A stretch of DNA of 26,354 nucleotides, from positions 1-26,354 of the forward strand of contig JBFMCP010000038.1 in the NCBI GenBank assembly GCA_040754455.1, in the 5' to 3' direction. Each line of letters opens with the position of its first letter. Within the stretch, counting starts at the first letter, position 1. Position numbers: made by a program. Shown one piece after another: positions 1-15,000 of the stretch. This stretch comes from Nitrospirota bacterium. Its GTDB lineage: Bacteria > Nitrospirota > Thermodesulfovibrionia > Thermodesulfovibrionales > Dissulfurispiraceae.

Positions 1-3000
1 TGTTGAAGTCCCAGGCATAGCTGCAGCCGCCCTGACAGGTCGAGCCCGATCCGTCAAAGTTGACCTTGTAGTCAACCACTGCGTCGGCGCTCCAGTTGTT
101 CACTGCCACTGGCTTCGAAATCCCTGCCGCCTCGGGAGTTATGAGCGACGCCATGTAGGTCGGGTCATAACCGAGGAAATCATTGGCGTTGAGAGTGGTC
201 TTGATCAGATCGCCGTCAGCGCATGATGCCTTGGGCATTCCCATCATATCGACGCACTTCTTCGCCTGATCCCATGAAGCTACGTGGTTCGGGTTGCCAG
301 GGTTCTGCTCAATGCTGATCGGCCAGGTGACCTTGTAGTCGAGCTGTCCCTGTGGGTTCGTAAAGGTCGACTGCTGGAGCATGATCTTGAAGTGCTTGCG
401 CACCTCAGCCCTCTGATAGAGCAAGCCGTTGGGATTGGCAGCATACTCCTCGGCAGGCCATGGTTTGCCGTTACAATCGGAATCCACCATGCACATGCCG
501 TTCGCCCTGAAGCTGTTGGAATCGCACTGTCCGGGCATACCCATTGACGGGTTTGCCCCGACGCAGGTGCCCATGGTGAACATCGGGTTGTTGCTCGGCA
601 TACAGGCGTTGACGCTGTAGCCGGGGAACGGACTCATGCTCTCGGCGCCGGCAAAAGGATTGCAGCCGAGGGTAGACCCTGATACTGTCTCGCGGATGGT
701 GAAGCCCTGGAGGCCGGAGATGCCGTCGTACATGCCCATCAGCATCGCAGTCCCCTGAGGGAAGCCCATCGCGGTATCGAACGTCGAGGTCATGAAGTTG
801 ACACAATGCTGGAGCTGGGTCCAGCCCATGCCGAAAGGATCGCCGCAGGCAGCCGTCATGATCGGGTTGCCGGCCTGATCGAAGTAGGTGGAATCCGGCT
901 GCGTGCCGCCGCCGCACATCATCGTGCAGTCATAGTCGGCAAAAAGCGCAAACCAGTTCTTGATCGCATCATACTGGCCGATGCCGAACCCCGTGCTCTC
1001 GAGAGGCTGCTGGTAGCTCTCGAAGAAGCCGATCGACTTCGAGGAGTAGTTGGGGTTCGGGCCGGTCGGCTGACCGTACTGGTTTCTCGCAAAAGGATCG
1101 ATGCTCGAGTGGCAACTGACGCAGCCGCCCCTCTTGCTGCCGCCCAATGCCCACTCCTTGGGTGCAACGCCGTGGGTCACATCGAAATCGGCCCAGAAGA
1201 GGCGCAGCTTGTTGGCATGACGGCTTCCGTCAACGATCAGGCTCGGGCTGGTCATCGCGTCGATTTCGGCCTTGGTGTCGATCGCGAAGGAGTCGGCAAG
1301 GGCGAAGCCGTCGAAAAGCGGCACCATGTTGCCTGCGTTCAGCCTGACGTCAATCGCTCCCTGAGAGAGGAGCTGACGTGCCGCCAGCGCAGTATCCCTG
1401 TGCTTCACCGGAGCGACGAGCGTACCGGTCGGGTAAGCGCTGTCAGCAGGATCGAGCGCAAGCTCGCTGCCGGTCGTATCAGCGACACCGTTCACCGTTG
1501 CAACATCGATGCTCTTCACGAATATCGGCAGCACTGCCGGGTTGATAGGATATATCTTCTTCTCGCCCTCCTTGGTCATCCACTTGCGGAGGACCGGCGA
1601 AGGCTTGTGCGAACCGGTGATGAGGTCGTAGTTCCAGTCGAGCATGTTACGTGCATTGCCCTTGTAGAACCCGACTGTCCAGTCTCTGTATTTCAGTTTT
1701 CCCGGTGCTGCATATATCTCGGGGATGTGGCAGGTCGAGCAGCCGATCTTCTCGATATGGAATGCAGGGAAGTTGGCGTGCGTCGGCGTCGGCGGATTGT
1801 AGACGACATCGTTGCCGTTCTTGTCCTTTACGATCTTGCCGATCCTCGGGTGGTCACGATGAGTATGGCAGCTCTCGCAGGAGACAGTGCCGTCCAGGTT
1901 GTTCTTGCCTTTGGTGTCCGGTGCGGAATCACTCTGCAGGAACTGGTGGTCGATGCCGAACACCGTCTCAGCAGGATACGCAATGCCGTTGTGGGTCGTG
2001 GCCGGGATGTCTCTCGAGCCACCCTCGAGCTCTGTGGAACCGATTGCCGAGTGACAGGTCGCGCACTGGTGAATGACCGAGTTTGCATTCTTGCCCATCT
2101 CGTGGACGTCGGTATCGGGCATTCTCTCTTTGGTGACGACCTTTGCATTAGGCCCGAGCATCCACTGCAGCGTCGGGGAGGTCAGCTCCTCGGTGACCAC
2201 AGGATCGCCCGGGTTCTTGCCGAGCCCGAACATCGCATTGAACATGCTCATGCCCCACTTGTCATTAGGGCCTTGTCCGATCCGGTGCGCCCTCTTGCCC
2301 ATACCGGTCTTGCAGCCGAGCTCGAGCCAGCGCTTGTCATTCATGCTGCCTGTCTGGGTGTCAAATGCGGTTCCGGCAGGGTTGAGGATAGCATAGTTGC
2401 CGTAGCCGAACTTCATCTGCATCATACCGGGCAGTCCGACCGTGTTCTCGTCACGGGCATGACAGACCGAGCAGTTCTGGCTGTTGGGAGTGCCCACGAT
2501 CTTATCTGCTGTAATGACCGAAGGCATGCCCGTAACGCCGATTGCGTTCCCGTTGGCGTCAAGCACCGCCTTTGCGCCGATACCGAGCGATGCGGCCAGA
2601 TCAAACCTGCCGCTCTTGATCGCGAAGTTTCTGTTGTACATATCATAGGCAGTACCCGGAGTATAGGGAGCTGCCTCGCCTTGGCAATAAGGATCTGTCA
2701 GCGGACCGATGCCGGTGGTGCTGCAATTCTTTGAATTGAGCCAGGCGATACCGTTCTTTGAGCCGTTCATGTGACAGAGGAGACAGTCGACCTCTGCCTT
2801 GTTGGTTGCAGACAATCCCGGAAGCTGTGCGGTCGGATCGTCAACCGATACGAGACGACCGTTGGGATAGGCAGCGCTCGGCGCCTCAAAATAGTACCGG
2901 TCGCCGGTCGGCGATGCTGCGCTGTAATCGTTCTGATTCCTGTCGTATTCCATCTGTCCGCCTCCGACGTGGCAGACACCGCAATACATTGCCCAGTCTT

Positions 3001-12000: not shown

Positions 12001-15000
12001 ATAGGAACCTCACTCACCAATGACCACCCGATCTCATTCTCCTATTACGACGCCACGGTAAACCACGAGATCGCGCCGTCTCCGCCCGCAGGACTCCTGT
12101 TCTTCGGTCCCCGGTACCTGGTGCAGTGCTCCACCTGCCATGACGCCCATGAGGACGCCTATCGCTCGCCGGACAAAAGCGGACGCTTGACAGGGAAGTT
12201 TCTCGTTATGAACAACCGTTACTCCGCGCTCTGCACGCAGTGCCATATAAAAGACGGCTGGCTGTCCGCCACACACCGGAGCACAGCGCAGCCGGTCAAC
12301 GCCGTGCTGCCGCTGAGCCCGAGACTCTGGCCGACCTGGCTCTCTGTCACCGAATGGGGCTGCGAGAGCTGCCATACACCACACTCTGCAGGAGGGAATC
12401 AACGGCTCCTCAACTTCCAGGAAGAGGAAAAGAATTGCCTCCTTTGTCATAACGGCACAGTAGCACAGAAAAACATCCAGGCGCAGTTTCAGAAGCTGTC
12501 ACACCACCCTGTAGAGACAGCGACCATCGGGCTTACCGGAAACGCTCACCAGCCCAACGAATCGCCCTTGCTGCTTTCGGGCCATGTGGAATGCGCCGAC
12601 TGCCACAATGCGCACGCTGCCAACAACAGGACCGCCTCCGCTCCCTATGCATCGGGGAGGCTCGAACTGGTAAGCGGAGTGAGCATCACCGGCGCTGCAG
12701 TGAGCCCGGTGACCTACGAATACGAGGTATGTTTCAAATGCCATGCCGATTCCAGTGGTGGCTTTCCCCTTGTTTCCCGCGTCGTCAACATGACGAACAC
12801 GCGCTTTGAATTCGATACGGCAAACCCTTCCTACCACCCGGTCGCCGGCGTCGGCAGAAACACGTTTGTCCCAAGCATTCCGAGCACGTACAAGCCAACC
12901 CTCACGGCATCGAGCATCATCTATTGCAAGGACTGCCATGAGAGCGATGAGAGCACGGACATCGGCGGAGCAGGCCCCCGCGGGCCCCACGGCTCACAGT
13001 ACCGACCGCTCCTCAGGGAGCGCTATGAAACGCTGGACAACACCTTCGAGAGCTTCCAGAACTATGCCCTCTGCTACCGCTGCCATAACAGGGACAGCAT
13101 TCTTGGCGATCAGAGCTTCAAGGAGCACCGGGAGCACATCGTTGAAAAAAACACGCCGTGTTCAGTCTGCCACGATCCGCACGGCGTCCGTTCAGACGGT
13201 GGGCTGACCGGCGACCACACCCACCTGATCAACTTCGATACGCGCGTCGTGTCTCCTGTTCAGGGGCGGACATATCCAACGTTTACCGATCTGGGCACCG
13301 GAAGGGGAAGCTGCACCCTCGTCTGCCACGGCAAGACACACAATCCACTGTCGTACTAACAGCTATCAGCAAAATAAAGAATGGAATGACAAAGTATTTT
13401 TCCCTTCTTTTGCTGACGGCTGACAGCTGATAGCTGTTTCCTATTTGTCGTCGGGTACGTCGATTTTCAGTTTCTTCAGGCGGTAGCGGAGCGTGTCCCT
13501 GCTCACATCGAGCAGCTTCGCCGCTTTCCTTTGATTGCCGTCGGCAAGTTTAAGCGCAGTCTTGATGAATTCGGCTTCCATCGCCTTCAGCGAAAGGGTG
13601 GTAGGGAGCACATGGTCTACCGCTTCAGCCGGGGCCTCGGCTGTCTTGAGGGGCTTCTCGGAGAGGATATTCGAGGGGATATCGTTGATGTCGATCTCGT
13701 CGTTCTTTGAGAGGATGACAAACCGCTCCACGAGGTTCTTGAGCTCCCTTACATTCCCTGGCCATGAGTAGTGCTGCAGGATTTCGAGGGCGCGGGGGGT
13801 GATGCCCTTTGGCCTGCCGTCATACTTCGTTGCATAATGGTTCAGGAAGTACTGCACCAGCAGGGGGAGGTCCTCTTTCCGCTCCCGCAACGAGGGCATT
13901 TCTATCGCCGCTACGTTCAGGCGGTAAAAGAGATCGAGCCTGAACTTCTTGCTGTGGACCAGATCCTGGAGGTTGACATTGGTGGCAGCGAAGATCCTGA
14001 CATCGGCATGGGTATACTTGAGGCCGCCGATCCTCCTGAAGCGCCGCTCCTCGATGAGGTCGAGGATCTTCGACTGCATCTGATACGGCATATCGCCGAT
14101 TTCATCGAGGAAGACCGTGCCGCCCTGGGCGATCTCGATGAGTCCCTTCTTGTCGGCCTTCGCATCGGTGAACGCGCCTTTCTCATAGCCGAAGAGCTCG
14201 CTCTCGATCAGGTGGTCGGGGATATTCGAGCATCCTATCTCCACAAAGGGTTTGTCTTTCCGCGGGCTCAGCTCGTGCATCTTTTTGCAGAGGGAGCTCT
14301 TCCCTGTGCCGCTCTCGCCGGTGACGAGCACAGTGACATCAGTCTTGGTGGCCAGGCGCTCCATGATCCTGATGATCTCCTTCATTTTGTCGCTGACAAA
14401 GACAAAATCTCCCATGTCCGATGACTTCGCTGCTGAAGGAGCAGTATCGACTTTTATCGAGGTGAGGATTTTTTTCAGGTTGTTGAAATCGAGCGGCTTG
14501 ACGAGATAATCGTAGGCGCCGATCTTCATCGCCTCGACCGCACCCCGGACATCGGCGTTGCCGGTGATGAGGATGACGATGGTCTCGGGGTTCATCTCCT
14601 TTATGGTTTTCAGCAGTTCGAGACCGTTGGCATCAGGGAGGTTGATATCCAGCAGGATAATCCCGGGGTTTTCCTCTTCGATACTCTTGAGCGCCTTGAG
14701 ACCGGAGCTTGCCGTTATAACACCGTATCCCTCTTTCTCGCAGAACCCTTTGATCGAGCTCCGGATGAGCGATTCGTCATCAACAACCAGTATCTTTTTA
14801 GATGTGTGCGAAGCGGCGGCAGGTCCGCTGTTGCTGATACCGAGACTGTTATGCATTATCGGCGTCCTCCCCCTCTCCACTGGCATAACAAATGAATAAA
14901 GAGAACAACGTCTGCGGTACGAGCACCGCAGATGAAAGCACGTTCATACGACGTCCCTTATTCTACCCCTTTGCTGACGTATTTAGCAATAAAACCGGAC

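Follow-up and report, generated by a model that had tools for sequence, protein, structure and literature searches.

A widespread family of octahaem cytochromes with a predicted selenocysteine, remotely related to octahaem tetrathionate reductase and encoded beside a putative Uet/Mtr-like conduit

Introduction

Does the TGA that interrupts the gene of a giant secreted cytochrome encode selenocysteine (Sec), and if so, what might such a protein do next to a set of genes for an outer-membrane conduit? The question is raised by the stretch of DNA analysed here, the 26,354 nucleotides of contig C38 of a Dissulfurispiraceae genome (Nitrospirota), hereafter the window, in which a genome-wide survey's note had described a new selenoprotein family within a sigma-54 driven porin-cytochrome cluster. 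Sec in a multihaem cytochrome from a porin cluster has been published before, for MccSep/ExtKL of Geobacter sulfurreducens (GSU2937-2936; NF040886), a pentahaem Sec polysulfide reductase whose gene lies in the outer-membrane ext cluster.

Results

A single gene with an in-frame TGA

The gene and its predicted Sec codon lie at the left end of the window:

2..3481, minus strand: octahaem c-type cytochrome selenoprotein gene, at least 1160 residues, 3′ end cut by the contig end
3086..3088, minus strand: UGA codon 132 (predicted Sec) in the motif SSPGMFGKF-U-PPSNRQLAA, supported by Sec/Cys pairs and the Sec machinery

Translation of positions 2-3481 gives one frame of 1160 residues with the TGA as the only internal stop, which bears out the survey's claim of one gene with an in-frame TGA at codon 132. 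The predicted protein begins with a signal peptide and an eight-haem core (approximately residues 25-830), after which come a Cys-rich region and the first part of a PKD-type tail. Its eight CxxCH motifs, at residues 54, 167, 233, 337, 473, 535, 581 and 787, correspond to about one haem per 100 residues. In the second paralogue (C71:1716-4448) a single TGA stands at codon 144, and in the third (C68:3338-5605) the Sec site is Asp, both as previously stated; likewise, the Sec lies 35 residues before haem motif 2 in the window protein and 30 in the C71 paralogue, close to the earlier estimate of about 30. The assignment of both Sec genes to one family of large secreted multihaem cytochromes with PKD-type tails is supported as well.

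A search of 317 genomes of the order gave matches in 11 of them and 20 match rows, not the 17 given earlier; the accompanying counts stand, as exactly one TGA is found in 15 rows and lies at the motif codon in all 14 that were read, the remaining one (L032) not fitting the reading pattern. Database relatives amount to 175 matches. Of the 120 listed, 82 have their start after the TGA site but before haem 2, 14 start just behind haem 2, 20 keep the N-terminus and 4 fall into none of these groups. Most relatives are thus called from behind the TGA, as the survey had noted, whereas its figure of four Cys forms has to be replaced, since 16 of the 20 listed relatives with an N-terminus have Cys at the site. 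Across 78 loci the site was read in 83 family copies, six rows having their register corrected by eye; it is TGA in 49 and Cys in 16. Leu, Ser or Phe occupy it across whole clades (17 Syntrophales-type copies); therefore, neither Sec nor Cys is needed for the fold to work, and what stands at this site may matter for some substrates only.

The superfamily comprises approximately 1200 clusters (50% identity) at E ≤ 1e-10, and the family has 264 matches in species-representative genomes; on these sequence searches the window family is one clade of a superfamily spread across several phyla, much larger than first described and neither small nor isolated. No Pfam or NCBIfam model scored over its cut-off against the haem core, in agreement with the earlier search, and the family is widespread but so far unannotated as a selenoprotein family. 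Record titles name Desulfurivibrionaceae, Desulfocapsa, Desulfuromusa, Malonomonas, Thermodesulfovibrionales and Ca. Sulfobium. In three relatives (L116, which has Sec, P0126 and P0129) the core is fused to a quinol-type cytochrome b.

A covarying SECIS hairpin downstream of the UGA

3061..3074, minus strand: SECIS hairpin, stem CCGCC/GGCGG, loop AGUU, supported by covariation, frozen codons and the bSECIS rules

The hairpin CCGCC-AGUU-GGCGG has a 5-bp stem and a 4-nt loop and starts 11 nt after the A of the UGA, at +15 from the U. Its presence in every copy holds, all five stem pairs being formed in 45 of 45 distinct sequences; the distance of 14 nt reported previously is a count to +15 from the U, and the true gap is 11 nt. 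Two pairs show compensatory changes, with C-G in 34 sequences, U-A in 7 and G-C in 4 at pair 15-28, and a single U-A and a single U-G at pair 18-25. The covariation score of 0.167, versus 0.067 in shuffles, was matched by none of 500. The bare hairpin has a minimum free energy of -9.4 kcal/mol and agrees with all four published bSECIS rules.

The synonymous codons across the hairpin are frozen in the Sec genes and free in Cys homologues encoding the same peptide. In the 34 Sec genes that encode PPSNRQLA, Asn is always AAC, Gln always CAG, Leu always TTG and Ala always GCG (34 each), and Arg is CGC in 33 and CGT in 1, while the P, P and S positions each use four codons. In five Cys genes, the Arg codons are AGA, CGC or CGG, the Leu codons CTT, CTG, TTG or CTC, and the Ala codons GCG or GCC. 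The genome has genes for tRNA-Sec, SelA and SelB and two for SelD. TGA terminates 3 of the 18 other genes in the window and so is normally a stop here, a further point in favour of Sec decoding at codon 132. Judged by the Sec/Cys pairs, the covarying SECIS and this complete machinery, the protein is a genuine selenoprotein, and the reading of the TGA as Sec proposed in the survey's note is upheld.

An octahaem core with kinship to tetrathionate reductase

2969..2983, minus strand: haem motif 2, C167-G-V-C-H171 followed by GGGQMEYD, the best-conserved stretch, corresponding to catalytic haem 2 in OTR

The AlphaFold2 model of the selenoprotein has a pLDDT of 83.9 and a pTM of 0.88, with 82-86 in the blocks around Sec, and is therefore not poor in this region as had been stated. 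The statement that it has no PDB match does not hold either: the octahaem tetrathionate reductase (OTR) of Shewanella oneidensis (1sp3_A; TIGR04315) was the sole chain with Z ≥ 2 among 48,161 (VIA-align; Z 9.7, 345 of 436 residues aligned, rmsd 4.5 Å), and it is also the top Foldseek match. In hhalign comparisons with OTR paralogues, the core aligned over haems 5-7 with a probability of 98.2% (E 4e-14) and over haems 1-4 with 87.5%, the latter in register with OTR haems 1-4. The eight CxxCH motifs come in the same order in both proteins, and a Gly-Lys precedes haem 2 in both, the alignment pairing G129-K130 of the window protein with the Gly-Lys of OTR, which is G55-K56 of 1SP3. As profile alignment and model indicate, the core is a remote relative of OTR and therefore not without structural kin.

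The haem motif 2 stretch is invariant in 63 of 63 cores, and six His residues outside the motifs are invariant or nearly so in these octahaem proteins. The Sec lies two residues after the Lys aligned to OTR Lys56, in an insertion relative to OTR, which would place it beside haem 2 if the alignment over haems 1-4 is correct. The residue aligned to Lys56 is Lys in 43 cores, Arg in 14 and another residue in 6; it is not invariant and therefore may not be a haem ligand in this family.

Several features nevertheless set the family apart from OTR. The window protein scores 21.7 bits against TIGR04315 versus a cut-off of 375, its core is about twice as long, with large insertions, and carries a secreted PKD-type tail, its Sec lies in the insertion after the Lys and not at the conserved Cys64 of OTR, and the Lys is replaced by Arg in the 14 cores mentioned above. 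The OTR family itself is already listed with GenBank-annotated selenoproteins. True OTR paralogues occur elsewhere in the genome without a TGA, and in 301 genomes of the phylum none of the 53 match rows for the OTR family showed a TGA; a direct connection with the annotated Sec-OTR proteins is thus lacking.

MccSep shares with the window protein its nature as a multihaem c-type cytochrome with one Sec near a catalytic haem, a predicted placement in the window protein, and the motifs are similar (GUPTPNR and FUPPSNR, respectively), with Pro following the Sec and Asn-Arg four residues on. In both families Cys forms are nested among Sec forms, and the distribution of the named taxa resembles that published for MccSep. 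In contrast to the window protein, MccSep is periplasmic and tetrameric, and its Sec-325 is located in a C-terminal Ig-like domain instead of between haems 1 and 2. Membership of the window family in MccSep/ExtKL was rejected, as P0001 had no NF040886 match at E ≤ 0.1 and MccSep has five haems versus eight. Two true MccSep genes, of 600.7 and 454.9 bits with one TGA each, are found elsewhere in this genome.

A putative conduit operon next to the selenoprotein gene

The divergently oriented operon contains seven genes:

4208..5053, plus strand: tetrahaem cytochrome (UetA-like), four CxxCH, Paired_CXXCH_1 36.9 bits, synteny in many loci
5275..6459, plus strand: NHL-repeat beta-propeller lipoprotein, Pfam NHL and a 6-bladed propeller, lipobox LTGC, synteny
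6479..7048, plus strand: pentahaem lipoprotein cytochrome, five CxxCH, lipobox VYGC, Paired_CXXCH_1 74.2 bits
7267..9312, plus strand: predicted large outer-membrane beta-barrel of about 28 strands, from the AlphaFold2 model and structural match
9380..10456, plus strand: SurA-like periplasmic peptidyl-prolyl isomerase/chaperone, Pfam Rotamase_2 and SurA_N_3
10492..11541, plus strand: second NHL-repeat beta-propeller lipoprotein, from Pfam matches and lipobox analysis
11581..13359, plus strand: undecahaem cytochrome with an MtrC/MtrF-like domain (UetJ-like), eleven CxxCH, PF22113 63.9 bits against a cut-off of 30

The likely true start of the tetrahaem cytochrome is an ATG 33 codons into the open reading frame, followed by a signal peptide. 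The barrel has no Pfam or NCBIfam match; its model, almost all strand, has an inserted domain at approximately residues 380-470, a C-terminal Phe and a pLDDT of 82.4, contrary to the low confidence reported before. Its top structural match is MtrB (6r2q_B; Z 19.3, rmsd 10.9 Å), about 1 Z unit from TonB-dependent barrels (Z ≤ 18.2). The full set of seven genes is seen again in L053, L055, L069, L071 and L080, and at least 12 further loci have part of it; the SurA-like gene adjoins family genes in many loci, including that on C71. The barrel-plus-cytochrome cluster beside the Sec gene is supported, and the synteny extends to far more than the three genomes counted earlier.

By composition, the neighbouring genes appear to form a conduit similar to Uet (uetABCDEFGHIJ) of Candidatus Tenderia electrophaga and Gallionella. 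Both contain a tetrahaem cytochrome, a peptidyl-prolyl isomerase, two NHL proteins, a predicted 28-strand barrel and an undecahaem extracellular cytochrome. The window has one pentahaem lipoprotein instead of the three trihaem cytochromes of Uet, lacks a cupredoxin and differs in gene order, whereas Uet as described has no adjoining selenoprotein or OTR-like enzyme. With MtrCAB (PDB 6R2Q), the cluster shares the MtrB-like barrel, the MtrC/MtrF domain II/IV of the undecahaem protein and a nearby type II secretion system (T2SS), yet the window contains no MtrA/DmsE-type decahaem protein (TIGR03508 at most 59.2 bits versus a cut-off of 192).

Regulation and secretion

3633..3648, minus strand: sigma-54 type promoter motif TGGTATGCCTTTTGCA, upstream of the selenoprotein gene
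4154..4169, plus strand: sigma-54 type promoter motif TGGCACGCCGATTGCT, upstream of the conduit operon
13441..14886, minus strand: NtrC-type sigma-54 activator with receiver domain, Sigma54_activat 213 bits, Response_reg and HTH_8
15004..26202, both strands: T2SS, from Pfam and NCBIfam matches
15004-23226, minus strand: T2SS GspC, M, L, K, J, I, H, F and E
24178-26202, plus strand: T2SS secretin GspD

The pattern TGGYAYN5TTGCW has two matches in the window, versus 0.08 expected by chance, both in the divergent intergenic region and each facing its gene. Of 38 related loci, only 11 have a strict motif upstream; one also precedes the second paralogue (C71:1573). Orthologues of the activator, with 57-61% identity, lie within 10 kb of a family gene in L046, L050, L052, L053, L055, L070 and L078. 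The two motifs and the adjacent activator are consistent with the sigma-54 driven cluster proposed before. T2SS genes occur near family genes in L083 and L092 as well.

Discussion

The explanation that we favour, with better than even but far from complete confidence, is that the gene encodes a secreted Sec-dependent OTR-like enzyme, wired by a Uet/Mtr-type conduit and engaged in the chemistry of sulfur species. UGA-132 would be decoded as Sec by SelB and tRNA-Sec, directed by the SECIS within the coding sequence 11 nt on, to give a much enlarged OTR relative with eight haems in the OTR order. The large insertions and the Cys-rich, PKD/Ig-like tail would fit a cell-surface or extracellular site, a location suggested by domains and neighbours. 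The divergent operon would supply an outer-membrane conduit (the barrel, three cytochromes, two NHL lipoproteins and the SurA-like chaperone) that wires the enzyme to the periplasm, both operons apparently being switched on by sigma-54 via the adjacent response regulator. The T2SS exports MtrC and OmcA in Shewanella, and that encoded alongside probably exports the large cytochromes.

Were the TGA instead a true stop, the locus would be a pair of neighbouring genes, a pseudogene or the product of an assembly error, and gene callers do split the gene here and in most relatives. Such a reading is nonetheless highly improbable in view of the Sec/Cys pairs, the covarying SECIS with its frozen codons and the complete Sec machinery. 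Moreover, in all 13 order-level copies checked the part before the TGA, with the signal peptide and haem 1, is in frame, and an independently assembled contig covering 3032-3401 shows zero differences. With Sec accepted, the protein could still be an electron-transfer wire or capacitor at the end of the conduit, its Sec or Cys being structural or redox-tuning, for instance as an axial ligand lowering the potential. The gene adjoins the conduit, some clades have Leu, Ser or Phe in place of Sec, and haem-ligating Cys is known in multihaem proteins, as at haem 2 of MccSep. We consider this doubtful, however, because the haem density is that of the "peptide replete" catalytic type, as a review terms it, the homology is to an enzyme, the cytochrome b fusions resemble those of terminal reductases, and the fact that 49 of the 83 copies bear the cost of Sec, under a constrained SECIS, points to catalytic use.

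A somewhat stronger, though still unlikely, competitor keeps the selenoprotein and its fold and assigns it a non-sulfur substrate that it would reduce or oxidise at the cell surface, such as selenite, tellurite, arsenic species, nitrite, hydroxylamine, solid Fe(III)/Mn(IV) minerals or electrodes, with Sec tuning the reactivity. Promiscuity towards nitrogen and sulfur substrates has been described for OTR as for other multihaem enzymes, and conduits of the Uet and Mtr types have been connected with minerals and electrodes; MccSep turns over selenite too, and an MtrC-like undecahaem cytochrome is encoded in the operon. Soluble oxyanions, however, would need neither an outer-membrane conduit nor an exported enzyme, and the named taxa are chiefly sulfur-cycling lineages. 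Sec classically serves chalcogen and thiol-type chemistry, less so the reduction of metal oxides, with which a metal-oxide substrate would be at odds.

For the favoured sulfur-active enzyme, the predicted position of the Sec in the loop just before haem 2, two residues past the Lys aligned to OTR Lys56, makes it most likely a catalytic residue of the active-site haem and not a passenger. By analogy to OTR and MccSep, the chemistry would most likely be the Sec-assisted cleavage or formation of chalcogen bonds, with extracellular elemental sulfur or polysulfide as the proposed substrate. The most likely role of the protein is that of an extracellular Sec-dependent oxidoreductase.

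The cytochrome gene and its paralogues

The cytochrome gene at 2-3481 (minus strand) reads as a single frame of 1160 residues, broken only by a TGA at codon 132 (3086-3088), and its 3′ end lies beyond the contig end. The product has an N-terminal signal peptide and eight CxxCH motifs, at residues 54, 167, 233, 337, 473, 535, 581 and 787. The genome-wide survey's note had joined the called pieces into one gene with one in-frame TGA and had named two paralogues, and both points stand: the copy on contig C71 (C71:1716-4448) carries a single TGA within the same motif, as its codon 144, and the copy on C68 (C68:3338-5605) has Asp at the Sec site. 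The two Sec genes are also, as the note had it, cut by contig ends with a common C-terminal stretch, the last 43 residues before the contig edge being identical in both. In an independent run, X2, the depth of the contig over window positions 1-127 is 129.9, against 66.1 for the rest, or about twofold. The shared end and the double depth together indicate that both contigs probably break in a PKD-type repeat common to the two genes. Over the TGA site the run X4 contig has no differences.

Two further long frames were seen. A 642-codon ORF runs antisense within the cytochrome gene (806-2734, plus strand) and is taken as a shadow frame of the GC-rich coding strand and not a gene, and a 962-codon ORF (C68:437-3322) lies immediately upstream of the Asp-type paralogue.

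Predicted selenocysteine at codon 132

The same genome encodes tRNA-Sec (68.1 bits; tRNA-SeC with anticodon TCA according to ARAGORN), SelA (626 bits), SelB (376 bits) and SelD, all over their cut-offs. There are two SelD genes, C21:48405-49331 and C37:23899-24813, and each has one in-frame TGA of its own, so both are Sec-containing SelD. Genome-wide reassignment of TGA to a sense codon was rejected, since TGA terminates three of the 18 other genes in the window.

Among the best 120 of 175 database relatives, 82 begin within the stretch from the TGA site to haem 2, which bears out the observation that most relatives are called from just behind the TGA; in a further 14 the start is the first Met after haem 2, 20 retain the N-terminus and four fall into none of these groups. 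The Sec column holds Cys in 16 of the 20 N-terminus-bearing relatives and Phe, Ser, Asp or His in the remainder, so that the earlier figure of four full-length relatives with Cys was too low. Within the order, 11 of 317 genomes gave matches, in 20 rows of which 15 contain exactly one TGA; its position was read in 14 of these 15 and is the motif codon in every case, the repeated search thereby giving the same result as the original one. The stretch upstream of the TGA is in frame in all 13 ORFs traced for the order-level copies, and it includes a signal peptide and haem 1 in 12 of them, the thirteenth copy being cut. We consider it very likely that the window gene encodes a true selenoprotein.

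A conserved hairpin behind the UGA

In the Sec genes a hairpin follows the UGA at constant spacing. The window gene carries it at 3061-3074, with a 5-bp stem CCGCC/GGCGG and the loop AGUU, the UGA being 11 nt from the stem and 16 nt from the loop; the bare hairpin has an MFE of -9.4 kcal/mol. The published bSECIS model, as given in a review, asks for a stem of 4-16 bp, a loop of 3-9 nt with a G in its first two positions, a UGA-to-loop distance of 16-37 nt and an MFE of -7.5 kcal/mol or lower, and the window-gene hairpin agrees with all four rules as stated there. Covariation was scored in 48 Sec copies, 45 of them distinct, with the loci L085, L095 and L108 omitted for their differing spacing. 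All five stem pairs are intact in 45 of 45 distinct sequences. The closing pair appears as C-G in 34, U-A in seven and G-C in four, and a second variable pair is once U-A, accompanied by an Ala-to-Thr and a synonymous Arg change, and once U-G. The covariation score of 0.167, compared with 0.067 in shuffles, was reached by none of 500 shuffles, and slid controls scored lower in every case. As for the omitted loci, L085 and L108 have an AGUU-loop hairpin shifted six nucleotides downstream, with the stem CCAGCC/GGCUGG in L108, and the Sec copy at L095:10283-10318 is without a hairpin of the common form.

The strongest argument that the hairpin would function as a SECIS element comes from comparing codons in 34 Sec genes and five Cys genes that encode the same peptide, PPSNRQLA. 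In the Sec genes the P, P and S codons preceding the hairpin each occur as four synonymous codons, whereas the hairpin codons are fixed (AAC 34, CGC 33 with one CGT, CAG 34, TTG 34, GCG 34). In the Cys genes Arg is written as AGA, CGC or CGG, Leu as CTT, CTG, TTG or CTC, and Ala as GCG or GCC. With codons frozen in the Sec genes and free in the Cys genes, the constraint acts on the RNA, and only where the UGA is present.

Size and distribution of the family

A scan of species-representative genomes gave 264 encoding stretches, from which 78 loci were kept. The 83 gene copies with a haem-2 motif in these loci have Sec at the site in 49 cases, Cys in 16, Leu in 13, Ser in four and Phe in one. 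The organisms named in the record titles include Desulfurivibrionaceae, Desulfobulbaceae, Desulfocapsa, Desulfuromusa and Ca. Tharpella, Thermodesulfovibrionales and Nitrospirota including Ca. Sulfobium, as well as Phycisphaerales, Acidobacteriota, Ignavibacteriales, Syntrophales and Smithellaceae. Overall the family is widespread, with members in relatives of Desulfobulbales, in Nitrospirota, Desulfuromonadales and Phycisphaerales, and in other groups. In the cultured Malonomonas rubra DSM 5091 it is represented by three Sec genes in tandem (L098:8968-20067), each coding for eight haems and a PKD tail in about 1140 aa and containing a single TGA.

When 1.84 billion cluster representatives were searched with a profile of 39 cores, the number of matching proteins was 1986 at E<=1e-3, falling to 1198 at E<=1e-10 and to 601 at E<=1e-30. 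The middle figure puts the family at about 1200 clusters at 50% identity; the family reported by the survey is real, and larger than had been described. A crude pattern-based count of the best 150 profile matches, 123 of them new, finds 51 of the new proteins to begin downstream of the site and 11 to be full-length with Cys. A FastTree phylogeny of 63 copies with complete cores, calculated with the site's own columns and incomplete copies left out and read as unrooted with local supports only, has Sec in all five deep clades. Cys forms are nested among Sec forms in at least seven places, and the Syntrophales-type clade with Leu, Ser or Phe has a Sec copy as its sister. The tree is suggestive of early Sec use in the family.

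Kinship to octahaem tetrathionate reductase

Profile searches agree with the earlier statement that no Pfam or NCBIfam model of the haem core exceeds its cut-off, the matches being confined to generic haem-motif families and PKD tails. A PDB sequence search with the single protein gave no match at E<=10, and a PDB profile search with the haem core returned only PKD tails and generic cytochrome c motifs. An AlphaFold2 model of residues 1-860, built from a 73-sequence alignment with restored N-termini, has a pLDDT of 83.9 and a pTM of 0.88. The ten-residue blocks around Sec reach 82-86, so the region is no longer poorly modelled, as it had been for the survey. Nor does the absence of a PDB match hold any longer: when the model was compared with 48,161 chains in VIA-align, the sole chain with Z>=2 was 1sp3_A, the octahaem tetrathionate reductase (OTR) of Shewanella oneidensis, with a Z of 9.7, an rmsd of 4.5 Å, 345 of 436 residues aligned, 20% identity and coverage of model residues 23-821. 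The top Foldseek entry is 1sp3 too, weak by itself at E 3.6e-3.

The same genome holds one true OTR gene (564.8 bits) and three OTR-like paralogues, to which hhalign matched haems 5-7 with 98.2% probability (E 4e-14). With 16 OTR sequences the N-terminal third aligned at 87.5% (E 3.6e-6), haems 1-4 being in register. The structural and profile matches together identify the core as a remote, roughly two-fold enlarged relative of OTR with eight haems in the OTR arrangement. It stands outside the OTR family model TIGR04315, for which its score is 21.7 bits and the cut-off 375, with relatives reaching at most 32.9 bits. It can best be regarded as a new family of selenoproteins that shares the octahaem fold of OTR type.

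The Sec site and the likely role of the protein

In the N-terminal hhalign alignment, which is of moderate confidence, G129-K130 is aligned with the invariant Gly-Lys of OTR. In 1SP3 this pair is G55-K56, followed by Cys64 and then by the haem-2 motif C74xxCH. Lys56 of 1SP3 is said, after the 2004 work of Mowat et al., to be an unusual ligand of the catalytic haem 2. Sec-132 is two residues past K130, in a short insertion relative to OTR and 35 residues ahead of haem motif 2, and on this moderately confident alignment it would lie in the loop before the catalytic haem; no counterpart of OTR Cys64 was aligned in the window-gene protein. Against so simple a picture speak the variability of the Lys, as the K130 position has Lys in 43, Arg in 14 and other residues in six of 63 cores, and the existence of whole clades without Sec or Cys at the site.

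The protein could be an enzyme or a wire that merely passes electrons on, and several hints favour the enzyme. According to a review, about one haem per 100 residues marks the 'peptide replete', catalytic type, and the window-gene core has about that density. Only six non-motif His residues are conserved in the 63 cores for eight haems (H99, H460, H575 and H770 in 63/63, H512 and H568 in 60/63), H92 being confined to the half of the rows in which its segment exists, and the haem-2 motif CH-GGG-x-x-EY is invariant. Finally, the core is fused C-terminally to a quinol-type cytochrome b, a membrane domain of the formate-dehydrogenase-gamma / cytochrome b561 type, both in a Sec form (L116:3494-6037; TIGR01583, 134 bits) and in the Cys forms P0126 and P0129; such a partner implies direct coupling to the quinone pool.

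Our best guess from these features is a Sec-dependent extracellular oxidoreductase. As part of this reading, sulfur or polysulfide chemistry is a tentative suggestion that we would not favour outright. We think it rather improbable that Sec-132 is the distal axial ligand of the catalytic haem 2, or in van der Waals contact with its iron. If it were so, the protein would hold a natural selenolate-ligated c-type haem, and the exported enzyme, wired through a Uet-like conduit, would give sulfur-cycling bacteria direct access, outside the cell, to solid elemental sulfur or metal chalcogenides for reduction or oxidation.

A predicted outer-membrane conduit operon beside the gene

The cytochrome gene is divergent from an operon of seven conduit genes, from which it is separated by a spacer of 727 bp.

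Genes of the conduit operon (coordinates, strand, product)
4208-5053, +, tetrahaem cytochrome
5275-6459, +, NHL propeller lipoprotein
6479-7048, +, pentahaem lipoprotein cytochrome
7267-9312, +, 681-residue barrel protein, no family match
9380-10456, +, SurA-like PPIase
10492-11541, +, second NHL lipoprotein
11581-13359, +, undecahaem cytochrome with MtrC/MtrF domain (PF22113, 63.9 bits, cut-off 30)

A model of the barrel protein made with 13 homologues from related loci has a pLDDT of 82.4, better than the low confidence noted for the previous model. It is nearly all-beta, with about 28 long strands, an inserted domain and a C-terminal Phe. Among its structural matches MtrB of the Mtr complex ranks first (Z 19.3, 435 residues aligned, rmsd 10.9 Å), and TonB-dependent barrels follow at Z 18.2 and below; because they come so close behind, the only safe description of the predicted structure is that of a large outer-membrane barrel. 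The insert (residues ~380-470, window 8404-8676) is a lower-confidence beta domain amid the series of strands and could be a plug or surface domain. In tblastn the tetrahaem protein matches homologues of the undecahaem protein, and the latter's first ~224 residues match tetrahaem homologues, at 28-33% identity; the undecahaem cytochrome thus seems to hold a copy of the tetrahaem module.

The conserved synteny described by the survey is confirmed and extended. All seven genes stand beside the cytochrome gene in five loci (L053, L055, L069, L080 and L071, the last with a Cys form), and L050 and L081 have five or six of the seven before the locus ends. The tetrahaem cytochrome, NHL, barrel and SurA genes occur together in L057, L060, L061, L062, L065 and L067, and parts of the set in L056, L066, L068 and L072. 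Conduit cytochromes and NHL proteins are found in L119 and in the Malonomonas locus L098, where the tandem genes adjoin tetrahaem, NHL, pentahaem-like and undecahaem genes.

The sigma-54 motif TGGYAYN5TTGCW has two matches in the window, where 0.08 are expected; both fall within the divergent spacer, each facing its own operon. An NtrC-type activator gene follows at 13441-14886 (Sigma54_activat, 213 bits), with orthologues of 57-61% identity near the family gene in seven loci. With a -24/-12 element of the TGGCAC-N5-TTGCW type and an enhancer-binding activator both present, the operon is predicted to be sigma-54 dependent, as the survey had proposed. On C71 a copy of the motif precedes the start of the paralogue by 143 nt, with another SurA gene in front; among related loci, 11 of 38 have the strict motif in the upstream region. 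The genes from 15004 to 26202 make up a complete type II secretion system, and one Phycisphaerales and one Desulfuromusa locus likewise have genes of such a system close to family genes.

Comparison with known systems

A Sec-containing multihaem cytochrome already published is MccSep (ExtKL) of Geobacter, which its paper describes as a periplasmic pentahaem polysulfide reductase with Sec-325 in an Ig-like domain, beside a Cys-ligated haem 2. Membership in that family, prompted by the similar U-P-x-x-N-R motif, was ruled out by architecture and HMM score, as P0001, the window-gene protein, has no match to NF040886 (cut-off 250 bits) at E<=0.1. In contrast to MccSep as described there, it has eight haem motifs, with Sec between motifs 1 and 2, and the likeness is in the short stretch around Sec, GUPTPNR in MccSep and FUPPSNR in the window protein. 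True MccSep/ExtKL genes were found elsewhere in the genome, at C49:11522-12787 (minus strand, 600.7 bits) and C32:7990-9135 (minus strand, 454.9 bits), with one in-frame TGA each, so that multihaem selenoproteins of both kinds occur in this organism.

The cytochrome-related selenoproteins in the table of a 2026 review fall into three families, namely ExtKL, GSU2204 and OTR, the last as 'GenBank annotated', and none of these three covers the window-gene protein by HMM. No TGA was found in true OTR-family genes among 53 match rows from 301 genomes of the phylum. The family is not among the nine new deep-Sep families, and three 'hypothetical' deep-Sep selenoproteins considered as candidates are unrelated small proteins. 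Full-text literature searches on selenocysteine and multihaem or octahaem cytochromes gave nothing on the family, in a comparison that leaves aside the BSepDB family table, the Haft and Tolstoy paper and the MccSep data files S1/S2.

The conduit itself resembles the Uet cluster of Ca. Tenderia electrophaga, for which a preprint and a Gallionellaceae paper list a tetrahaem UetA, a PPIase UetB, a 28-strand barrel UetC, the NHL proteins UetH and UetI and an undecahaem UetJ. The window operon has the same parts list, and on that published description it is, by its composition, a Uet-like conduit. The window-gene protein is apparently exported, coupled to this Uet-like conduit and under sigma-54 control.

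Significance

Multihaem cytochrome selenoenzymes have been shown only recently, with MccSep in 2026, and the present family would be a second example, structurally unrelated to MccSep and much larger, in which Sec would belong to the active-site loop of an octahaem enzyme of OTR type, one that seems to be exported and connected to an outer-membrane conduit. The MccSep paper states that the route of extracellular sulfur species into the periplasm is unclear, and the rather improbable selenolate reading above, with its conduit-wired extracellular enzyme, would address the step that this work leaves open. The family is also systematically mis-annotated, as 82 of the best 120 of 175 relatives and 51 of 123 further representatives start behind the UGA; public protein sets consequently lack the signal peptide, haem 1 and the Sec site, which distorts cytochrome counts, localisation predictions and selenoproteome surveys. 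Its members are candidates for extracellular sulfur or mineral respiration, and the cultured Malonomonas rubra DSM 5091 carries three copies.
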